Part shown: positions 5,444-64,000 of the stretch, piece after piece | Numbering within the stretch: the first letter of the stretch is position 1 | Layout: each line of letters begins with the position of its first letter | Assembly (NCBI GenBank): GCA_019651095.1 | Contig: BOXR01000005.1 | Location: 4,992 to 68,991 of the forward strand | Origin: Ectothiorhodospiraceae bacterium | GTDB taxonomy: Bacteria > Pseudomonadota > Gammaproteobacteria > GCA-002705445 > GCA-002716945 | Reading direction: 5' to 3' | DNA: 64,000 bases | Position numbers and translations under genes: made by a program | Notes under the pieces: generated by a model | Seen by the model: only the letters and a program-made list of their open reading frames with translations | The model's database searches: none | Told to the model about the DNA's origin: nothing

Positions 5444-6483
5444 ATGAAGAATCTATTAAGTGCACTTGCGCTATTATTTTTCCAGTACAGCATTTTCTGG
5501 TGGACAAGGATGAGTGATTCGCAAGGAAACAGTATGTCAGCAGCCAAGGCATCTTCAGGGGTACATTTTTATGGAAGGCTTTACATTGGATATGATAGCA
5601 CTACCGGTGATACGGCTAGATTAGATGATGGCGGCAATAAAAGCAGACTTGGTCTTAAAATCAAATCGGGAATATTGTTGGTAACCTAGAATATAAATAC
5701 GATATTGGTGATGGCACAAGTGGTGCAGGTGCCAACTGTGGAACTCATCAGCAAATGGATGTCAAACATTTGATCTTCATGTCGGTAATTTAGGTTTTAT
5801 GACACCACTCGGTTACATTGGTGCAGGTACTTATGAAGCTCCTTATAAAACTATGGGGATGTTTGATGAGAATATGGATACAGCCATAGCCCTGAATTCT
5901 CATGGCGGCTTTAGTCAAGGCCAAGGTGGTATCGCGGGTAACTTTGAAGGTGCAATAGCATATCATGCCATGATGGGGCCACTTGAAATTGGTTATATGT
6001 ATGCTGCAACAGACAACACAGCAAATGATGTTACCAATACAGACCGTGGTGATTATTCAATTGGTGTGACAGTCAAAGACATGTTACTAAATGGTTTAAC
6101 TTTTGGATACGCAAGATATCATGACGATGAAGTATCTGGAGCAGAAGGCGAGAATAATGATAAATTTTTTGCCTCTTATCAAGTTATGCCGAACATGGGT
6201 GTATTCTTGTCTTTAGAGGATCTTAGCGTGGTAAATACCTTTATTGCCTCCAGTGGAACCGATGGAAAGATTAATACTTATGGCATTCATTACTCTTTGG
6301 GTATAGCAGATATTCAGCTTGTAAGTGCTGAAGGGATTCTGATGGTGCAGCTAACCAAGATTATCAAACACGCAGCATCTCTGCTAAGATTAATCTTAGT
6401 AAGAATTCAGACATTACATTGGATACACTAAGCAAGACTTTGACGAAGATGGCTCAGACTTTAGTACATCCGGCATGGTCTAA
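5444..6483 (+). pseudogene. Outer-membrane porin (Gram-negative porin family) in two fragments plus a shifted C-terminus. Paralog of the intact porin at 31768..32862.
   Basis: 5363..5689 has a signal peptide 'MKNLLSALALL' and 'FYGRLYIGYDST...SRLGLK'. 5799..6431 continues beta-barrel-like sequence. Similar to the intact porin ('KLYGRLWAQYSNEKTDGS', 'GRIGFKGKS'). Confidence 0.55.
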
Positions 6484-6512
6484 CACATAAATTCTAATTT
6501 TAGAAAAATGTA

Positions 6513-6552
6513 AAAACCTAGCCTGAAATGATTTCAGGCTAGGTTTTTTATT
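6513..6552. terminator. Bidirectional Rho-independent terminator: hairpin CCTAGCCTGAAA-tgat-TTCAGGCTAGG flanked by an A-run and a T-run.
   Basis: Perfect 12-bp stem at 6517-6543, followed by TTTTTTATTT on + and preceded by AAAAA. Sits between convergent genes. Confidence 0.7.
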
Positions 6553-7169
6553 TATACAATATAAGGGGTTATAGACGCCAGCGAGACTAGTCCAGGATGA
6601 TGCGCTCCGCCCATGAAAAGTAACATAGGGATACTAAGCACTGTGTTGGTCCTAGAAGCTAACAAAGCTGTTTTCTTGGCTTGAGCAATCTCATCAGCTG
6701 AAGCCTCTACCATGCCTAGTACCTTCTGTTGATTTGGCCAAATGAGTACCCAAACATTAAATAACATAATTGTTCCTAACCATGCTCCTGCACCTATTAC
6801 AGAGCTATAACCTCCAGCAAAAGTAAATGCATCTATAAACTGGCCATGATGACCTAGATACGCCGCACCGGTTAACCATGTTACTACTGCACCCCACCTG
6901 AACCACAATAAAGCCAAGGGGGCAACGTACTTCCCTATCGCAGCTGGACCTGGTTCCTTGTCAGCTGTCGCTTTCGCCATTGCAGGCACTTGAACGAAAT
7001 TAAAATAATATAGCAGTCCAATCCATGTTACACCTGATAGGTAATGTAGCCACCTTATATACCCCTCAGCTTCAATAGGAATGCTGCCATCAGCTAAAAT
7101 CATTATGAATACAATTGCTAGTACAAAACCAGAAATTATAGTACCTTTTATTGATAATAAAGGATTCAT
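6552..7169 (-). CDS. Polytopic membrane protein of unknown function, with a weak HemJ/PuuD-N-like motif.
   Basis: 205 aa with about 5 hydrophobic helices. Motif 'IRWLHYLSGVTWIGLLYYFNFVQVP' resembles the HemJ-family signature. No firm assignment. Confidence 0.35.
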   Translation of the reverse strand: MNPLLSIKGTIISGFVLAIVFIMILADGSIPIEAEGYIRWLHYLSGVTWIGLLYYFNFVQVPAMAKATADKEPGPAAIGKYVAPLALLWFRWGAVVTWLTGAAYLGHHGQFIDAFTFAGGYSSVIGAGAWLGTIMLFNVWVLIWPNQQKVLGMVEASADEIAQAKKTALLASRTNTVLSIPMLLFMGGAHHPGLVSLASITPYIV

Positions 7170-9059: not shown

Positions 9060-9374
9060 ATGTCAGCACTAGATAGAATAAAAAAACAAGTAGAAGAAAG
9101 CCCTGTAATACTCTACATGAAAGGTACACCTCAAATGCCAATGTGTGGATTTTCTGCAAGAACGGTTGAAGCTTTAAAAAGTTGTGGTAAAGAGTTCGCT
9201 TATGTAAATGTAATTTTAGATTCAGAGATAATGCAAGAATTACCAAACTTTGCTGACTGGCCAACATTCCCTCAGTTATACATCAAAGGAGAGCTTATTG
9301 GGGGATGTGATATTACACTGGATCTTCATCAATCTGGTGAACTTCAAAAAATGATTGATGATGCAGTTAGCTAA
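9060..9374 (+). CDS. grxD: Monothiol glutaredoxin (Grx4 family).
   Basis: 'CGFS' active site, 104 aa, typical Grx4 length and motifs (WPTFPQLYIKGELIGG). Confidence 0.85.
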   Translation: MSALDRIKKQVEESPVILYMKGTPQMPMCGFSARTVEALKSCGKEFAYVNVILDSEIMQELPNFADWPTFPQLYIKGELIGGCDITLDLHQSGELQKMIDDAVS

Positions 9375-9998
9375 CCAGCTGGTGTATTAATTGCATGAAT
9401 AATGCCCCAATAATCGAAGATATTTACCTTAGATATTGACTGAACATTAAGTTTCGCGTAAGCATTAAATTCTGAAAATGGAAAGTATGGCCTCCAGCCA
9501 AGATATTTACTTACAGGCATGAGTCCTTTTTCTAAAATTTTCATAAATTTACTATCAGTCTCAAAACTAAAATGATTTACCAAATAAATGTCACCATTTG
9601 GTTTACAGACTCTTTTCATTTCTTTGATTAATAGGTTCGGATTCTGCGTCACCGAAACCACATACATCCAACAACTTTATCAAAAGAATTATCCTCAAAT
9701 GTAAGTTGCTCCCATTCATCATAATTACATTCTTATTTTGAAGATTATGTTTTCTTATGTTTTTTTTTGCCTTTTCAAGCATATCAGGAGATATATCAAT
9801 TCCAGTTACTTCTGTTTCCATCGGATAATATTTGTAAGAGGTGCCCGTTCCTATTCCTATTTCAAGAACCTTGTCAGTTGGAGTGCACTCCATCATGCTC
9901 ACAAGCTTTTTTTGGCCCGGTCTAAAGATTTGACCAAATGTGTAATCATAAAATCCTGAGACTCGTTTATATGATTTTATTATAGACTTATCATCCAA
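9371..9998 (-). pseudogene. Class I SAM-dependent methyltransferase split by one frameshift (9603..9998 plus 9371..9667).
   Basis: SAM motif 'VLEIGIGTGTS' in the upstream piece. The downstream piece continues an MTase fold. The two pieces overlap in different frames around 9603-9667. Confidence 0.55.
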
Positions 9999-19307: not shown

Positions 19308-20477
19308 TTATGCTCCAAGCTCTTTTAGTGCTTTTACAGCTTTATTTGCTGCATCTTCCAGAGTGAAGGCTTCTGTATAGGTAATTTTACTGTCTTTAAG
19401 TATTTTTATACCTTCATCAACATTTGTGCCAGCCAACCTGATCACTAATGGTTGATTGATTGTTATTTGATTAAGTGCATCAACAATTCCTTGAGCTACC
19501 CAATCACATCTATTTATTCCAGCAAAGATATTTATTAAAATTACTTTTACTTTGGGGTCACCTGAAATCAGCTTAAAGGCTTTAACAAACTTTTCAGGAG
19601 TCGCTCCTCCGCCTACATCAAGGAAGTTTGCAGGTTGTCCACCAGCGAGCTGAATCATATCCATCGAAGCCATAGCTAGACCGGCCCGTTTATTATGTTG
19701 CCAATGTCGCCATCAAGTGGAATATAGTTAAGACCTCGATCTGCAGCATAAGTTTCTTTTGGATCTTCTTGAGATTTATCTCTAAGTTCAGCCAGTTCAG
19801 GATTTCTGTATAATGCATTGTCATCGAATGACATTTTGCAGTCTAGGGCGAGTACATGGTCATCCCCAGTTAAAACTAAAGGATTTATCTCAACCATAGT
19901 AGCGTCAGATGTACTGAAAGCTTTATACGCACCCAAGATAGCTTGAGCACATCTATTAATCGCTTTCGATTCCAAACCTAGTGCAAAAGCAATCTCCCTT
20001 GCCTGATAGCTTGCATTCCACTGCAGCTTCAATCCTTGTCTTAATAAGTGATTCAGGCTTTTCTTCTGCAATCTCTTCAACACTCATTCCTCCCTCAGAG
20101 GATGCAACAACCATGATGCTCTCTGTACTTCTGTCAAAAACCAATCCAAGATAAAATTCTTTTTTGATATCTGTGCCCTCTTCAACATAGATTCTTTGAA
20201 CTGTTTTACCTTCAGGACCTGTCTGATGGGTTACGAGCGTCTTTCCAAGTAGCTTATTAGCTGCATCAGATACTTCTTGTTCTGATTTACAAACAATTAT
20301 ACCGCCAGCTTTCCCTCTAGCTCCGGAGTGTATTTGTGCTTTGACTACCCATAGATCTCCTCCAAGTTCAGTCGCCCTATCTTTTGCATTCTCTGGGCTA
20401 TATGCAACTCCACCTTTAGGTATTGATACGCCAAATCTAGATAGTATTTCTTTTGCCTGATACTCGTGAATATTCAT
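19308..20477 (-). pseudogene. mtkA: Malate-CoA ligase / succinyl-CoA ligase beta subunit (ATP-grasp) split into 3 ORFs by 2 frameshifts.
   Basis: N-term '[28 protein letters not shown]', middle '[20 protein letters not shown]', C-term '[20 protein letters not shown]'. Strong collinearity with methylotroph MtkA as recalled from memory. Frame switches near 20045 and 19675. Confidence 0.75.
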
Positions 20478-22443: not shown

Positions 22444-23213
22444 TAAAACAGCTATACATAACACAACTGACAACGATCTTCAGAAAAGAATTCTTTCGAT
22501 GGTCACGTATTTGGATACAGACTATCTTACCATCAGTAATTACAATTTTTTTATACATAACTATTTTTGGGAATTTCATTGGATCACGTTTGGGAGATAT
22601 CAGTGGGCTGCCTTATATACAATTCATACTGCCAGGTTTGATCATAATGCCTATCATTTCAAATTCATACATGAACGTCGTTGGTTCTTTTTATAGTGGT
22701 AGGTTTCAAAAAAGTGTTGAGGAATTATTTGTATCCCCACTTTCAAGTCACGTAATTTTGATCGGGTATGTATTGGGTGGTGTATCAAGAGCTTTTGTAG
22801 TGGGCTTCGCGGTATATCTAGTCTCACTAAGTTTCACAAATATACCAATACATAATGTATATCTTGCTATTTTTCTAACACTTCTTGTTAGTTTTTTATT
22901 TTCCATCCTTGGATTTATTAATGCTGTTTATGCAAAAAGTTTTGATGATATAAATATTATTCCAACGTTTGTTTTAACTCCGCTTACATATCTAGGTGGA
23001 ACCTTCTACTCAATATATAACCTTCCTGAAGCTTGGCAAACAGTATCATTGTTTAATCCTATAGCTTATATGGTAAGCGCATTTAGGTATGCATTTATTG
23101 GTATAGAAGAAATGAATACATTTAATGCGATAGTAATGATGTTCATATTAATCTTTTTCATGTATTCTCTAGCTATATACCTTTTAAATAGAGGTATTGG
23201 AGTAAAAAACTAA
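22440..23213 (+). CDS. ABC-2 family transporter permease.
   Basis: 257 aa with 6 TM helices. Translationally coupled to the upstream ATPase. Confidence 0.7.
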   Translation: MIKQLYITQLTTIFRKEFFRWSRIWIQTILPSVITIFLYITIFGNFIGSRLGDISGLPYIQFILPGLIIMPIISNSYMNVVGSFYSGRFQKSVEELFVSPLSSHVILIGYVLGGVSRAFVVGFAVYLVSLSFTNIPIHNVYLAIFLTLLVSFLFSILGFINAVYAKSFDDINIIPTFVLTPLTYLGGTFYSIYNLPEAWQTVSLFNPIAYMVSAFRYAFIGIEEMNTFNAIVMMFILIFFMYSLAIYLLNRGIGVKN

Positions 23214-23335
23214 CTCTCACGAGGTTGGGAAAGTCAGTGAATACATAATCTGACACTGCCCCCGCAACGGTGAACAACAGTCCGAATGCCAACGAGGTGA
23301 GACCTACTTTAGCGGTGGTGCTATGAAAGAAATCT
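23210..23335 (+). promoter_or_regulatory. Cobalamin (B12) riboswitch candidate in the leader of a btuB-like gene.
   Basis: GC-rich island in an AT-rich background: 'GGGAAAGTCAGTGAATACATAATCTGACACTGCCCCCGCAACGGTGAACAACAGTCCGAATGCC...GGTGGTGC' resembles the E. coli btuB leader core (GGGAAtCCAGTG..GAAtCTG..ACTGCC..GCAaCGGTaA). Sits ~200 nt upstream of a TonB-dependent receptor. Confidence 0.6.
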
Positions 23336-56041: not shown

Positions 56042-56927
56042 ATGAAGAGCGCTAAAAAAAACAAGGTTGGATTTATTGGTTTGGGCATTATGGGAAAGCC
56101 AATGGTCATAAACTTAATTAAAAATGACATTGAGGTTTATTTCTATGCGAGGAAGAAACGAATAATAGATGAAATATCAAAGATTGGAGGCAAGTTTATT
56201 CCAAATCCTAGTGATATTTCAAAATTCACAAAAATCATCCTGACGAACCTCCCAAATACAAAAGATGTCGAAAATATTGTCATTGGTAAAAATGGAATTA
56301 TCAACATCTACAAACGGCTCTATTGTAATAGACATGAGTACAATATCACCTGAAGGCACAAGATATATAAATGATAAATTACGAGAAAGAAAATCCTATC
56401 TCCTTGATGCTCCTGTATCTGGTGGTGAAGCCGGCGCAAAATCTGGGAAATTATCAATTATGGTTGGCGGGGATAAATCAGCTTATCTCAAAATTAAATT
56501 TATTCTGTCGGTTCTTGGCAGCAAAATAACATATTTAGGTAAAAGTGGATCAGGTCAAATTTGCAAAGCTTGTAATCAAATCCTGGTGGCGAAAACTATC
56601 CAATCTATTAGTGAAATTATCACTATTGCAAAGAAGTCAGATATAAATCCGATGATAATTAGAGAAGCTCTTCTCGCTGGATATGCTAATAGTAAAATTT
56701 TAGAGGTTCATGGAAAAAGAATGATTACGTCTGACTATAAACCTGGTTTTAAGCTATCTCTTCATCATAAAGATCTCAAAATAGCTAAAAATTTAATCAA
56801 AAACATGGGCTTAAATCTAAAAGGATTGAATCAAGTTCAAAAAGCAATGAGTTGCGCGGAAAGAGAAGGTCTGTCAGACTGCGACTCCTCTGTTATCCAC
56901 ACTATATTAGAAAAAACTTATAAATAA
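56042..56927 (+). pseudogene. NAD-binding 3-hydroxyisobutyrate / tartronate-semialdehyde dehydrogenase family, split by one frameshift near 56300.
   Basis: 'GFIGLGIMGKPM' Rossmann start in ORF 1. 'APVSGGEAGAKSGKLSIMVGG' catalytic region in ORF 2, in another frame. Confidence 0.65.
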
Positions 56928-56938
56928 TTATTAGTGTT

Positions 56939-57363
56939 TTGACATTAATATATTATAATACCTGCATGGAAGACAAATACGAGAGTATATATAGAGACTT
57001 AAATGTAACCCCTACAAAACAGAGGGTAGATTTAGCCCAGCTGATATTTTCAAAGAAACAGCATTTTACTGCCAGTGACCTTATAGCAATGGCTGACAAA
57101 AAGAAATTGCATATTTCTATGGCAACAATATATAATACGCTATCTTTATTGGAGGATAAAGGAATGTTAAAGACAATAAATATAGATAATGAATTGAAGT
57201 TCTATGATACTAATCTAGATAATCACCATCATCTTTACAATACAACCATGAGCACTTGACTGATATTGATCATGATAAGATTGTTTTTGCAGAACTCCCA
57301 GAGTTACCAAAAACTCTCCAAATCGAGAGCACAGAGGTATTAATTAAGGCAAAGAATAGATAA
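56939..57363 (+). pseudogene. Fur-family transcriptional regulator with a frameshift before the C-terminal dimerisation region.
   Basis: N-terminal winged helix 'TPTKQRVDLAQLIF...ISMATIYNTLSLLEDKGML' then 'HHHLYNTTMST*'. The C-terminus continues in another frame as 'HEHLTDIDHDKIVFAELPE...'. Confidence 0.55.
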
Positions 57364-57433
57364 TAACTTAATTTGTCTCAAGATCGCCCTTCCAAGCTTT
57401 TTTTAACAGACTCGTCCAGTACGATTTCCTTGT

Positions 57434-57808
57434 TTACTCTGGGTGATCAACGCCTATTCTCACTTCAGAACTTGAAATGAAATCAGCTATGTCATCTTGC
57501 TCAAGCTGAAAACGTAAGAAATGAACTGCAGATGTTTTCTCGTCGGTGCTCCTGTCTAAATCTTCATCTGCATAAGCTATAATTTTTTTATCACCAGAAG
57601 ATAACCAAATTTTATTTTCTATATCATGGAGCTTGAACAACATCTCTCTTCTCACTTCAACATCAGGAAACATTATCAACATTGTTGCTTTAAGATTTGT
57701 CCCATCAGGTATAAGGGGGTTATATGCATCGATCTCTTCTTGAATTTCCTTCTTATTGAAAATTTTTTCTATCCTCAGCATTTCCTGTACTTGATATTTG
57801 ATAGTCAT
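57434..57808 (-). CDS. DUF3501-family protein.
   Basis: 124 aa. Sequence and position immediately downstream of a CCG-domain Fe-S protein and rubrerythrin, a commonly seen module. Confidence 0.5.
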   Translation of the reverse strand: MTIKYQVQEMLRIEKIFNKKEIQEEIDAYNPLIPDGTNLKATMLIMFPDVEVRREMLFKLHDIENKIWLSSGDKKIIAYADEDLDRSTDEKTSAVHFLRFQLEQDDIADFISSSEVRIGVDHPE

Positions 57809-57944
57809 ATAATCTTCAAATATAAGAACAATATTATCACCAATATTGATTGTCCTGTTTTTTTTATGACTAATTAATTCTTTTTTATTGAGTCTCTCTT
57901 AGAATCATATTCTTCAAGTGAGAGAAGGTCTTTAGGCTCTAATT

Positions 57945-59272
57945 TCATGCTCTTATTCCATACGCTTTCTTAATTAAACTGATCGGATGCTCAGGCTCTT
58001 GTATGTTCCCTAGTGAATTTTCAATATGATGAGCGGCCAATGAGCAGTCACTTGTAAAACTATCAAAATTGGCATCTTTAAATGACTTGGTTATAGGTCT
58101 AGCAATTTTGATAGCAATATCATGTGTTTCTAGCTTTACTCCGTATGTTCCATCATGACCAGAACACCTTTCGATTGCATTGACGGTAGTACCAGGAACT
58201 AGTTCAAGAATTTTTTTTGTTAGCATGCCAAAGTTTTGTACTCTCTGATGGCATGCAACTTGATACGATATGTTGCCAAGCTCTGTATTAAAATCTGTTT
58301 TCAATATACCCTCATCATTCAACATATTTAAAAATTCAAAGGGATCTCTAAATGATTTGGAGACTTTCAATAAATCTTGATTATCAGGGAAAAGAAGTGG
58401 CAGCTCTTGTTTATACATCAAAACGCACGATGGAATTGGCGCAATAATCAGATATCCTAGATCAGTGAATTTTTGAATTTAGGCAGGTTCTTTTCCATCA
58501 TCTTACCAACTTCCTCGATGTTTCCTAATTCTAACTTTGGCATCCCGCAACAGTTGTCGTCGGTTATCATTTCAACAGTTACATCATTATGTTTTAGAAT
58601 ATCATAGAAGTCTTTGATCACTCCGGGCTCGTTAAAGTTATGATAGCAAGTAGTAAAAATTGCTACCTTGAATTTTGAAGTATTAGATTGATTGGTTAAG
58701 TTGAGCTGTTTCGCAGTTTTTGATACAAATTTAGGCAACTTTGCGTTTCTATGGACTCCAAACTTCTCCAAAAGTTTTCTGAAAACTTTATTATTGTTAA
58801 AGAAATTTACAAATCCAGAGACAAAATACCTAGAGAACATTTTGCCTAGCATATCTGTAGAGGCAAGAACTTTGTCACGAAAAGATATTTTTTTCTTTGA
58901 ATTTTTAATTGCCTTACCTCTTAGCATTAGGTGAGGAAAATCAATCTCCCATTCATGTGGTGGAACATATGGACACTTTGTCATGAAACATAAGTCACAC
59001 AAATAGCAATGATCTACAACTGAATCGAAGTCAGTATATGAGACTCCGTCAACTTCAAAAGTTTCAGATTCATCAATGAGATCAAATAAAGTAGGGAATG
59101 AATTACATAAACTCACACATCTCCTGCAACCATGACAAGCGTCTGCGACTCGTCGTAGCTCTTCCTCATATTTCTCTTCATTTAAGAAATCGGGGTTTTT
59201 CCAATCTATAATATGTCTGGTTGGTTTTTCAAGCCCACCTTCCATGCTGGGTTTTAAATTTGCGTTGTCCAT
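57945..59272 (-). pseudogene. Heterodisulfide-reductase-related Fe-S protein (2x4Fe-4S ferredoxin motifs plus two CCG cysteine-rich domains), split into two ORFs near 58440.
   Basis: 'CHGCRRCVSLC' and 'CYLCDLCFMTKCP' ferredoxin motifs. 'TTCYHNF...DDNCCGMP' and 'VACHQR...ERCSGHDG' CCG domains. 58457..59272 and 57945..58421 are collinear but not in one frame. Confidence 0.6.
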
Positions 59273-59296
59273 ATTTCCCTGTTTTTTAGTTAAATC

Positions 59297-59323
59297 CTAG
59301 TGGGTAAATAAATTACCCACTAG
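59297..59323. promoter_or_regulatory. Perfect palindrome CTAGTGGGTAA-ataaa-TTACCCACTAG between rubrerythrin and the Fe-S gene.
   Basis: Perfect 11-bp inverted repeat with a 5-nt spacer, 13 bp after the rubrerythrin stop and ~25 bp before the next start. No U-tract in the minus-strand (transcribed) orientation. Confidence 0.5.
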
Positions 59324-59335
59324 ATAGATATTTTT

Positions 59336-59767
59336 TTATGAGATTGATTCTAGCGCTTTAGTAAAGCGGTTAGCATGTGATCTCTCAGCTTTTGCAAGAG
59401 TCTCGAACCAATCAGCGATCTCATCATGACCTTCATCTCTTGCTGTTTTTGCCATTCCAGGGTACATATCTGTGTACTCGTGTGTTTCCCCAGCAATAGC
59501 TGCTTTTAAGTTTGAGACACTATCTCCGATAGGCTCTCCTGTAGCAGGATCTCCACATTCTTTTTCAAGATACTCTAAATGACCATGAGCATGACCTGTT
59601 TCGCCTTCAGCGGTTGAGCGAAAAACGGTAGCTATATCATTTTGACCCTCTACATCAGCCTTAGCTGCAAAGTAAAGGTATCTTCTATTTGCTTGGGATT
59701 CCCCAGCAAATGCGTCTTTTAAGTTTTGTTCTGTTTTTGAACCTTTTAAACTCATTATAGTCTCCAA
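59336..59767 (-). CDS. Rubrerythrin-family diiron protein (ferritin-like domain only).
   Basis: Paired 'E..EAGETGHAHGH' and 'E..H' diiron ligand motifs. 143 aa. No rubredoxin domain. Confidence 0.8.
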   Translation of the reverse strand: METIMSLKGSKTEQNLKDAFAGESQANRRYLYFAAKADVEGQNDIATVFRSTAEGETGHAHGHLEYLEKECGDPATGEPIGDSVSNLKAAIAGETHEYTDMYPGMAKTARDEGHDEIADWFETLAKAERSHANRFTKALESIS

Positions 59768-59872
59768 TATGATTATTTAGAATGATTCTAAATTTATCCA
59801 TTATATATGTCAAATATTTTCTGCTATGATATTTAAGATGATAATGATTCTTGTTATCTTTGAGATGAGATT

Positions 59873-60886
59873 TTGAACAGACTATTATTTCAATTCTATA
59901 AAAAAATAGCATTTAAAGTTGATCCAGAAAAAGCTCATGATATATCGCTCTCTTTTCTTGAGTTTATCTACAAAAGCTTTCTTGGAAAGATATTTCATAA
60001 AAGATTTGTAAAAAATGGTATCAAACAATTTGATGTTCTTTTCGATAACCCTGTGGGACTAGCTGCGGGGTTTGACAAAAATGCTGACTATCTTAATTTT
60101 ATCACAAATATTGGATTTGGTTTTGTTGAAGTTGGTACCTTAACTCCAAAGGCCCAAGCTGGGAACCCAAAGCCAAGAGTTTTTAGATTAGCCAAGGATG
60201 AGGCGATAATTAATCATCTCGGTTTTAATAATAAGGGTATTGACTATGGAATTTCTCGCATAAAAGAATTTAATAGAAATATACCCATAGGTGTCAATAT
60301 AGGTAAAAATGCCTCGACAGATGTAAAAGATGCCTTTCGTGATTATGAGTATTGTCTGAGAAAAGCTTATTCAGTAGCAGACTATATCACGTTAAATATT
60401 TCCTCTCCCAATACAGAGAATTTGAGAGACCTACAGAAAGGAGAAAAGATAAGTAGCTTCCTACATTCCATTAAAACACTTCACGACAATTTAAAAAAAG
60501 TTTATAAAAAACATACACCACTAGTTGTTAAAATTGCTCCTGATGTGACTGATGAAATAATTTTTGATTTATCAAATCTAGTAAATGAGTATGATATAGA
60601 TGGAGTGATATGTACTAACACAACAATAGATAAATCTTGTCTGAGTGATCAATTTAAGGCTTTACAAGGTGGTTTAAGTGGTAAACCCCTTTTCCAAAAA
60701 TCAAATGATGTGCTCACTAAAATTTCTAATGTTCTGGGTAAAGAGAGGACGATCATTGGTGTAGGTGGTATCGATTCATATGAATCAGCAAATGAGAAAT
60801 TTAGATTAGGTGCAAATTTGCTTCAGCTTTATACAGGTCTTGTATACAAAGGGCCAAAAGTTATCGAGGATATATTACGATACTAG
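59873..60886 (+). CDS. pyrD: Dihydroorotate dehydrogenase (quinone), class 2.
   Basis: 'GFGFVEVGTLTP', 'NISSPNT', 'GVGGIDS'. 337 aa with an N-terminal membrane-association helix. Confidence 0.9.
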   Translation: MNRLLFQFYKKIAFKVDPEKAHDISLSFLEFIYKSFLGKIFHKRFVKNGIKQFDVLFDNPVGLAAGFDKNADYLNFITNIGFGFVEVGTLTPKAQAGNPKPRVFRLAKDEAIINHLGFNNKGIDYGISRIKEFNRNIPIGVNIGKNASTDVKDAFRDYEYCLRKAYSVADYITLNISSPNTENLRDLQKGEKISSFLHSIKTLHDNLKKVYKKHTPLVVKIAPDVTDEIIFDLSNLVNEYDIDGVICTNTTIDKSCLSDQFKALQGGLSGKPLFQKSNDVLTKISNVLGKERTIIGVGGIDSYESANEKFRLGANLLQLYTGLVYKGPKVIEDILRY

Positions 60887-62382: not shown

Positions 62383-64000
62383 TTGATCACAAAGTTTATA
62401 AGCTTATTAGGTACATAAATAGTCTTTAGGATATCAGATTCAGCTAGGTACTGTTTTGTTTTTTGATCTTCTAGTGCAATTTTCAAAACTTCCTCCTCAT
62501 TGAGATCAGATTTTGCATATATTCTGCTCCTGAGTTTACCATTAATTTGTACTATTATTTGAACTTCTTGATCAACATCTACTCCCTCAATTTTATCTGG
62601 CCATTCAGGGTTACTAGCTTTTTCGGCTTTTATTTCAGACAAAATAGTAAAACAGATATGTGGAGTAATAGGATATAGCAATTTAGCCATAGTAGAGATA
62701 CATATTTTCGCGGATTCATGCGATATTGACTTATCATCAATAGATCTAGACAAACTATTGAAAAACTCCATTACAGCAGCTATGGCTGTGTTATATGATT
62801 TTCTTTTGAAAAGATCTGTTGAGACTTTATCAATTGTCTCATTATGTTTAATTAAGATTTTATTATCTTTATCTTTTGGAACATCGTAGGAATTACGTAT
62901 CAGGTATGAAAGCTTCCAAAATCTTTTTAAAAATTTATAGCCTCCCTCAATTGCTGAGTCAGACCATTCGAGGTTTTGTTCAGGAGGAGCTGCAAATAGA
63001 ATGAAAAGTCTTATTGTATCGGCACCATATTTTTTTATTATATCGTCTGGATCAATCGTATTGCCTTTTGATTTTGACATTTTTGCTCCATCTTTAAGTA
63101 CCATCCCTTGTGACAGTAGAGATACGAAGGGCTCATCATCATCTACTAAACCTTCATCTCTTAAAAGTTTATAAAAGAACCTTGCATACAACAGATGTAA
63201 TATTGCATGCTCTATACCACCTATATATTGATCAACAGGTAGCCATGATTTGAACTTTTTGTTAAACATTTCTTTTTCATTATGCGGATCAAGAAATCTT
63301 AAGAAATACCAAGATGATTCAAAGAATGTATCAAATGTATCAGTCTCTCTTACAGCTTTTTTGCCTGTTAGAGGACAAGTAATATTTTTCCATTCATTAT
63401 TTCTATCTAACGGGTTTCCTTCACCATCTAATTTAATGTCTTTGGGTAACTTTACGGGTAGATCTTTCTCTGGAATAGGATAAACTGTGCCATCCTCATG
63501 ATAATATACAGGTATAGGACACCCCCAATATCTTTGTCTAGATATACCCCAATCTCTAAGCCTATATGTGACTACCTCCTCCCCGAGGTTATTATTCTGA
63601 AAAATTTGTTATCTTTTCTTTAGCAATATCTGATTGTAAACCGTTAAATTGAGAAGAATTAATAAGGATGCCTTTTTTCGACATTGGGAAGATTGTTCAG
63701 TCTTTTTGTCGTCAATTACTTTGATAATTTCAAAATCGAATTTTTTCGCAAAATCAAAATCTCGAGGGTCATGCGCGGGACACCCATTACAACACCTGTA
63801 CCGTAATTATCAAGAACATAGTTGGCAATCCATATCGGAATTTTTTTTGAGTAATTGATGTAAACAATATTTACCTGTGAATACGCCGTCTTTCTCCACT
63901 TTAGCAGAAGTTTCTTCAGAAAGTTTTTGTTTTTGATACTTAGTTATGAACTTTTTAATACTTTTATCTTTTTGTGATAGGTCTGTAGCTAGATCATGAT
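62379..64000 (-). CDS. leuS: Leucyl-tRNA synthetase, C-terminal ~540 codons. It continues past the window edge. One frameshift at a homopolymer at ~63597-63605.
   Basis: 'WLPVDQYIGGIEHAILHLLY', 'KMSKSKGN'. Upstream of 63269 the frame stays open ('LRDWGISRQRYWGCPIPV...TDTFDTFFESSWY') until a stop, and 'LINSSQFNGLQSDIAKEKITNF' continues in another frame. The two frames are reconciled by removing one A from the A5 run. Confidence 0.85.

Follow-up and report, generated by a model that had tools for sequence, protein, structure and literature searches.

The sequence analysed here is a 64,000-nucleotide stretch of contig BOXR01000005.1 (positions 4,992 to 68,991 of the forward strand; GenBank assembly GCA_019651095.1) from an Ectothiorhodospiraceae bacterium, henceforth termed the window. 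It has a G+C content of 34% and carries on its minus strand a single operon composed of the genes rbr, rfo and DUF3501, in that order, which encode a rubrerythrin (RBR), an iron-sulfur protein of the GlpC/HdrD type (RFO) and a member of the DUF3501 family (PF12007). A gene for a Fur-family regulator runs towards the operon from the opposite side. Ahead of rbr lies a promoter that overlaps a recognition box for the regulator Irr, the Irr box or ICE, and a perfect inverted repeat separates rbr from rfo. The positions of these features are listed in Table 1. Relatives that share the locus are referred to as SAR86-like, a label of ours that we return to below.

Table 1. Features of the rbr locus in window coordinates.
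Feature	Position	Strand	Description
RBR, aerobic-type rubrerythrin	59336..59755	-	139 aa, intact; diiron four-helix domain only
RFO, GlpC/HdrD-like Fe-S protein	57945..59272	-	Interrupted by a 1-nt deletion; 442 aa in relatives
DUF3501	57368..57948	-	Three 1-nt indels; 193 aa in relatives
Irr-like Fur-family regulator	56966..57363	+	Convergent with the operon; 1-nt deletion at ~57256; 132 aa in relatives
-35 hexamer TTGACA	59808..59813	-	rbr operon promoter; kept in all SAR86-like relatives
-10 hexamer TAGAAT	59785..59790	-	Inside the ICE box
ICE (Irr box) TTTAGAATGATTCTAAA	59776..59792	.	Overlaps the -10 box and the predicted transcription start
Candidate Fur box GATAACAAGAATCATTATC	59840..59858	. 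(sequence on minus strand)	Between the pyrD start codon and the rbr -35 hexamer
Intercistronic RNA stem-loop	59297..59323	-	11-bp stem, 5-nt loop, between rbr and rfo

RBR matches the Pfam Rubrerythrin family over residues 15-138 (E = 5.9e-29) and contains neither a rubredoxin domain nor C-terminal CxxC pairs. Two ExxH motifs, together with E19 and E90/E93, are readable in its sequence. The public assembly collection contains the exact protein in 2094 blocks, and identity amounts to 85% with members from Vibrionaceae and ~70% with deltaproteobacterial ones (loci L032-L050). Across the SAR86-like clades (L011-L031) conservation is unusually strong, RBR being 94-100% identical between genomes whose PyrD proteins are only ~50% identical. 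In RFO, two CxxCxxCxxxCP-type motifs are directly readable; searches with the intact protein of a relative recover one CCG domain at Pfam significance (E = 4.6e-11) and Fer4 below threshold. The NCBIfam GlpC model aligns with RFO residues 80-439 at 196 bits, which is under its cut-off. Both ferredoxin motifs described in a first-pass annotation of this DNA are thus seen, and of the two CCG domains it had assigned one is significant in Pfam. The DUF3501 start codon overlaps the rfo stop codon as ATGA, and the protein matches its Pfam family with E = 4e-44 for the fragment encoded in the window and 5.5e-66 for an intact relative. A structure from this family has been solved (3FJV, 'novel protein of unknown function') and is the only structural match of the DUF3501 AlphaFold model (pLDDT 88.5).

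Co-localization of a rubrerythrin without a rubredoxin domain, a GlpC-like CCG protein and DUF3501 has a published counterpart. The study by Cardenas, Quatrini and Holmes (2016; PMC5114695) defines an 'aerobic-type' rubrerythrin lineage devoid of the rubredoxin domain, gives the associated iron-sulfur protein the name RFO, reports the joint occurrence of RBR, RFO and DUF3501 in 185 of 4461 genomes, and proposes RFO as an electron donor that substitutes for the lost rubredoxin domain. Gray et al. (2020; PMC7050145) use the name 'aerobic-type rubrerythrin system' and place it in mitochondria. Compared with the system of these two papers, the window locus consists of the same families, lacks the rubredoxin domain in the same way, has the common gene order, shows the same tight coupling of rfo and DUF3501, and differs in nothing essential; its host is an uncultured, streamlined marine gammaproteobacterium. 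Neither the hairpin that follows rbr nor the regulator is discussed in the passages of these papers that were consulted. Among the 42 fetched loci with RFO, 37 have the order rbr-rfo-DUF3501, and these come from SAR86-like genomes, Vibrionaceae, Arenicellales and delta- and myxobacteria. The window trio is a member of this already published peroxide-defence system. That the three genes form a co-occurring module, as the first-pass annotation had proposed, is borne out by our survey and by the published co-occurrence. Its description as a module of unknown role does not hold, since the module was described and named in 2016 and later traced into mitochondria. No biochemical study of the RBR/RFO/DUF3501 system turned up in the literature collection that was searched.

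Upstream of rbr, TTGACA-17-TAGAAT (11/12) is the best promoter-like site in the interval 56900-59900. The consensus bound by Irr is TTTAGAA-N3-TTCTAAA (Rodionov et al. 2006; PMC1698941). Sequence TTTAGAATGATTCTAAA, which spans the -10 hexamer, is a perfect match to this ICE consensus and the sole perfect match in the 64 kb, where 0.00 are expected. Of the SAR86-like loci, 32 extend over the promoter, and each of them has the box once, either perfect or with one outer mismatch. Throughout these loci the geometry of the two hexamers is constant, the spacer around the box varies, and the 5' untranslated region ranges from ~20 to ~80 nt. Judged from the sequence, the ICE box is a candidate operator of the rbr operon and probably serves as such. 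A second candidate element is the Fur box between pyrD and rbr. No other site in the window matches the 19-bp Fur consensus better (16 of 19 positions), and every SAR86-like locus has a Fur-box-like sequence at the corresponding place; its target could be pyrD, rbr or both.

Outside the SAR86-like group, the ICE box is absent from the nine Vibrionaceae loci and from the delta/myxobacterial loci, none of which has such a regulator nearby apart from one weak match. This match, in a metagenome-assembled genome (MAG) from Myxococcales (L048:600-758), is of the Fur family, lies just upstream of rbr and shares 32% identity over 53 aa with the Irr-like query protein. Fur-family regulators may have been recruited repeatedly to rbr operons. 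In an Arenicellales MAG (L041:2909-2925), an ICE-like box with one mismatch, TTTAGAATAAGTCTAAA, stands behind a TTGACA upstream of rbr, with no Irr-like gene within 3.5 kb of it. ICE control of rbr may, on the strength of this box, extend to other gammaproteobacteria.

The convergent regulator belongs to the Fur family (Pfam FUR, E = 9e-17 and 1.2e-18). Among the NCBIfam models it scores 114 bits with IrrA, 111 with Irr, 82 with PerRA and at most 40 with the Fur models. Because the scores lie under the curated cut-offs, we label the protein Irr-like and do not treat it as an Irr equivalog. In an alignment with Irr-like relatives, H87-H88-H89 are invariant and H33 and D100 are shared, and the protein contains zero cysteines and hence no Cys4 zinc site. 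The nearest relatives outside SAR86 are 36-46% identical; nine non-SAR86 representatives, drawn from the ten nearest, all score best as Irr, one of them above the curated cut-off. Members of the cluster bear the JGI name 'Fur family iron response transcriptional regulator'. In each of 21 SAR86-like genome loci the gene is intact and adjacent to the operon, and within the 64-kb window it has no other Fur paralog, which settles for this stretch a question raised by the first-pass annotation. That annotation had also named the neighbour a possible PerR or Fur controlling the module: control is probable, and the scores point to Irr rather than to Fur or PerR. As a side observation, a protein of 2518 aa in the representative library (P0368) contains 19 separate stretches that match regulator residues 90-124 (103 bits).

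Irr regulation is known from the Alphaproteobacteria, the only class in which Rodionov et al. found Irr and ICE; for Pelagibacter ubique they predicted a minimal Irr regulon with rubrerythrin as its one gene (PMC1698941). An Irr box over the transcription start acts as a repressor site, for example at the rubrerythrin-like gene blr7895 and at bfr of Bradyrhizobium, and repression under iron depletion is common to all species in which Irr has been studied (PMC3413700). The window resembles this regulon in the exact consensus of its box, in its rubrerythrin target, as in Pelagibacter, and in the placement of the box over the -10 hexamer and start, which is repressor geometry; its regulator likewise combines an HHH motif with the absence of the Cys4 zinc site. 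It differs in its gammaproteobacterial host, in the lack of an N-terminal haem regulatory motif, and in the fixed position of the regulator gene beside its single visible target. The relatives with the locus are recorded as gammaproteobacteria, their leuS-lptE...holA-proA-nadD backbone is gamma-like, and the locus thus falls outside the published alphaproteobacterial distribution of Irr. A search for literature linking SAR86 and Irr found nothing relevant. On the alphaproteobacterial model, the Irr-like protein most likely represses the operon from the ICE box under conditions of low iron or haem.

A competing reading takes the regulator for a PerR-type peroxide sensor, in which metal-catalysed oxidation of histidines would release the box and H2O2 would induce the operon. 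The PerR box of Bacillus subtilis is TTATAAT-N-ATTATAA, and the window box, written as a 7-1-7 repeat (TTAGAAT-N-ATTCTAA), departs from it by one difference per half-site. The closest solved structure is PerR from Leptospira interrogans (5NL9, E = 2e-15), a member of the Fur family that has an HHH(H) stretch and no structural zinc site, and PerRA is the next-best profile. Conservation of the histidine and aspartate positions H33, H87-89 and D100, a peroxidase as target and the link of Irr itself to oxidative stress (PMC3413700) also speak for this reading. Against a peroxide sensor stand the Irr and IrrA profiles, which score ~30 bits above PerRA, the nine nearest relatives tested, which all classify as Irr, and the box itself, which is identical to the Irr ICE consensus. 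We consider a PerR-type sensor unlikely and retain Irr-type control as the preferred reading.

The inverted repeat between the first two genes of the operon, a perfect 11+5+11 palindrome, CTAGTGGGTAA-ATAAA-TTACCCACTAG, is positioned 12 nt past the rbr stop codon and 24 nt ahead of the rfo start codon. Only two perfect inverted repeats (arms of at least 11, loop of 3-8) occur in the window, compared with a mean of 0.27 in 30 dinucleotide shuffles, so the palindrome is real rather than a product of chance; moreover, no shuffle matched its pattern with up to three mismatches. Its predicted folding energy is -17.8 kcal/mol (z = -4.2). When 18 loci were folded, the hairpin was the dominant structure in every one, with z between -1.9 and -6.6 and at -3 or stronger in 16. 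With a stem of 5/11 G+C and three T in the next eight nucleotides, the window hairpin falls outside the definition of a canonical terminator. A scan for terminators on both strands did not call the palindrome, and a terminator on either strand was rejected as its identity. No Rfam family reaches gathering score on the palindrome.

If the hairpin were a full terminator, rbr would be monocistronic, and rfo and DUF3501 would depend on a promoter of their own. A T-run does follow the stem in several relatives (L020, L023 and L041, and by eye L024, L026 and L028), as this reading would expect. The U-tract is missing in the window and in most lineages, however, the 24 nt from stem to rfo start codon hold only a Shine-Dalgarno sequence and no promoter-like site, and tight co-occurrence and gene order favour co-transcription. 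A full terminator is therefore very improbable. Since the hairpin ends so close to the rfo start codon, and rfo and DUF3501 overlap as ATGA, we posit no second promoter; and since no promoter fits between hairpin and rfo, read-through past the hairpin must occur.

In the deposited sequence several of these genes are broken, and we mapped the breaks on an alignment of 10.6 kb of window sequence with seven relatives of 97.2-97.6% identity. Each break comes down to a 1-nt indel that none of the seven shares. In rfo, the single indel at 58474 shortens a homopolymer to T5 (58470-58474), which is T6 in the relatives. DUF3501 has three, at 57886 (T6, in the relatives T7), 57434 and 57389, and a neighbouring dehydrogenase gene two, at 56306 and 56315. 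All four proteins, including the regulator and a 295-aa dehydrogenase, are intact in the relatives. For the regulator, the next frame (57256-57360) continues to encode the C-terminal third, 97% identical to the relatives (tblastn, both halves); the region that the first-pass annotation had declared lost is present. That annotation had placed breaks at 58440 and 57230. They exist, lie at ~58474 and ~57256, and are joined by those in DUF3501 and the dehydrogenase gene. The iron-sulfur gene that it called split is indeed out of frame in the deposited sequence, through a deletion that is absent from relatives and most likely an assembly error.

Housekeeping genes carry the same type of damage. The essential leuS has six indels of 1-2 nt relative to all relatives (63604-63857), and sucC is split at 19676-20477, with positions 1-155 and 155-201 of the ATP-grasp_2 profile falling on two open reading frames. 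A methyltransferase gene at 9371-9998 is possibly split too. After repair, the ratios of synonymous to non-synonymous changes are 22:4 for RFO, 16:4 for DUF3501 and 13:4 for irr, next to 11:2 and 37:3 for the intact pyrD and proA, so that repaired and intact genes share the same synonymous excess. The relatives are pilon-polished long-read contigs with scattered splits of their own in other genes. Because leuS and sucC are broken likewise and the deletions are absent from every close relative, the frameshifts are most likely residual indel errors of long-read assembly rather than gene decay. Real pseudogenization, by which this strain would be losing its rubrerythrin reductase genes and regulator, could explain why seven indels cluster in four adjacent genes of the deposited sequence. 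It would leave unexplained the same damage in essential leuS and in sucC, the lack of relaxed selection in the affected genes, the two sites that are homopolymer length changes, and the 97.6%-identical relatives, all intact at these sites and split at random elsewhere; we regard it as very improbable.

Comparison between genomes bears on whether the palindrome acts as DNA or as RNA. In close relatives it is identical or has one base changed, and the next clade (L001) has GTGAGT/ACTCAC as arms where the window has GTGGGT/ACCCAC, with pairing kept and a different loop. More distant SAR86-like clades all have a stem of 8-20 pairs in this place, each unrelated in sequence to the others. In total, a hairpin follows rbr at this position in more than 30 loci, with differing sequences. 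Operons of Vibrionaceae, Arenicellales and delta- and myxobacteria (L032-L050) also have a strong hairpin of 8-21 bp after rbr, mostly without a T-run. A hairpin after rbr thus seems to characterize this operon family as a whole. Covariation was counted in 12 alignable hairpins of a SAR86 subset, with the partner column slid as control. In this alignment 89% of cells are paired, as opposed to 35-45% in the slid controls, pairs changed on both sides number 6 of 12, and none of 500 shuffles reached the observed covariation score.

The first-pass annotation had left the choice between an operator and an RNA stem. Three observations argue for a role at the RNA level: position and strand context place the site within a transcribed unit, right behind the first cistron, its sequence drifts while the ICE box 450 bp away stays nearly unchanged in the same genomes, and operons without the regulator carry the hairpin as well. 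The palindrome is an RNA stem-loop, and not an operator; as an element type it is ordinary. The idea of a recurring operator fails in particular, as no further copy exists in the 64-kb window with three mismatches allowed, and a scan of metagenome contigs returned three exact matches, two at the rbr/rfo junction and one on an unrelated contig of 45% GC. A dispersed element was rejected on the same findings. On the unrelated contig (Ga0265327_10000308, L057:1920-1946), which has no rbr module, the same arms are directly followed by a third arm copy (..TTACCCACTAGTGGGTAAC..). That a dimeric regulator such as the neighbouring Fur-like protein binds the palindrome as a DNA operator within the operon would suit a perfect, rare and symmetric site with a regulator gene next door, but is scarcely credible, given that the arms are wholly different between clades that keep the regulator at 54-98% identity and the ICE near-constant, that the changes are compensatory as base pairing predicts, that Vibrionaceae and delta/myxobacterial operons with no such regulator nearby still carry a hairpin, that the palindrome is unlike Fur, PerR or Irr boxes and sits past the first gene instead of at the promoter, and that an identical sequence is absent from the rest of the window and of the scanned SAR86-like DNA.

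We consider it likely that the locus as a whole is an iron- or haem-regulated, aerobic-type rubrerythrin peroxide-defence operon under Irr-like/ICE control, with an RNA hairpin and with frameshifts that stem from assembly error. One sigma-70-type promoter would give rise to a single rbr-rfo-DUF3501 transcript. RBR would act as a diiron peroxidase, as proposed in the literature, RFO with its two [4Fe-4S] motifs and CCG domain would supply RBR with electrons in place of the missing rubredoxin domain, and DUF3501 is presumably an obligate partner in the system. The convergently encoded Irr-like protein is predicted to bind the ICE box over the -10 hexamer and transcription start. If it behaves like its alphaproteobacterial counterpart, it would repress this iron-costly operon at low iron or haem and release it when iron or haem becomes available.

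Intercistronic stem-loops and leaky intrinsic terminators are a general bacterial means of setting unequal expression within operons. The window resembles such cases in a stable stem directly after the first, presumably most expressed gene, in downstream genes without a promoter of their own, and in a structure that is kept without sequence conservation; it departs from them in that its stem, at 5/11 G+C and with no U-tract, is unlike a canonical intrinsic terminator. Most likely, the hairpin would serve as a leaky stop or as a structure protecting the 3' end, such that the rbr message outlasts or outnumbers the rfo-DUF3501 part and a high ratio of RBR to its reductase results. The combined proposal, that SAR86-like bacteria dedicate an Irr/ICE switch to a single rbr operon and that a stem-loop kept across phyla sets the ratio of peroxidase to reductase, has in our estimation an even chance of being right.

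Several points weigh against this interpretation. The scores of the regulator lie well short of the curated cut-offs, at 114 versus 150 bits for IrrA and 111 versus 170 bits for Irr, and its closest solved structure, Leptospira PerR, is compatible with peroxide sensing. In Pelagibacter, rbr mRNA rises 1.57-fold under iron limitation, unlike what simple Irr repression at low iron would produce. The conserved Fur-box-like site suggests additional or alternative control. Regarding the hairpin, a DNA palindrome would yield the same covariation signal, and the window stem has neither a U-tract nor a terminator call, so that its effect on the RNA is something we infer. Genuine strain-specific frameshifts also keep a formal chance, given that the breaks were judged from the assembled sequence. 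Finally, the label SAR86-like is itself derived from AT-richness, abundance and the gamma-type leuS-lptE...holA-nadD backbone.

This backbone forms part of a neighbourhood with the order leuS-lptE-(MBL, hyp, pyrD / rbr-rfo-DUF3501 / irr-like, dehydrogenase)-holA-proA-nadD, hyp denoting a hypothetical gene, which is conserved in 21 of 21 SAR86-like genome loci even where PyrD is only ~50% identical. A SAR11 origin, suggested by an RFO match named 'Pelagibacterales' (P0060), was rejected, as the contigs in question show full SAR86-like synteny. In P0060 and L053-L055 the order is leuS-lptE...holA-proA-nadD-rsfS, and the name 'Pelagibacterales' is probably a binning error. Elsewhere in the window, an AdoCbl-II (cobalamin) riboswitch aptamer at 23211-23299 on the plus strand (52 bits, E = 8e-10) is the sole Rfam match. 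The only other long perfect inverted repeat, at 6512-6548, has arms of 17 bp with A5 and T5 on its flanks. Two open reading frames, 5799-6431 (+) and 6552-7169 (-), converge on this repeat, which looks like a bidirectional terminator.

At first sight the locus suggested an uncharacterized module, an enigmatic operator and gene decay; these turn out to be, respectively, a module already in the literature, an RNA hairpin of ordinary type and errors of assembly. The novelty is modest and consists of an Irr/ICE unit in a gammaproteobacterium, the gene trio and the regulatory logic being of already known kinds. A marine gammaproteobacterial lineage that ranks among the most abundant appears to possess an Irr-type iron/haem switch, to which its rbr operon is wired as predicted for SAR11. 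If true, Irr would have a functional regulon beyond the Alphaproteobacteria, one that mirrors the minimal regulon predicted for the co-occurring SAR11, and confirmation would widen the known range of Irr accordingly. The post-rbr hairpin, whose position is kept from SAR86-like bacteria to myxobacteria, offers a testable handle on subunit stoichiometry. If the switch is confirmed, rbr transcripts of this lineage could be used as a marker of iron or haem status in ocean metatranscriptomes.

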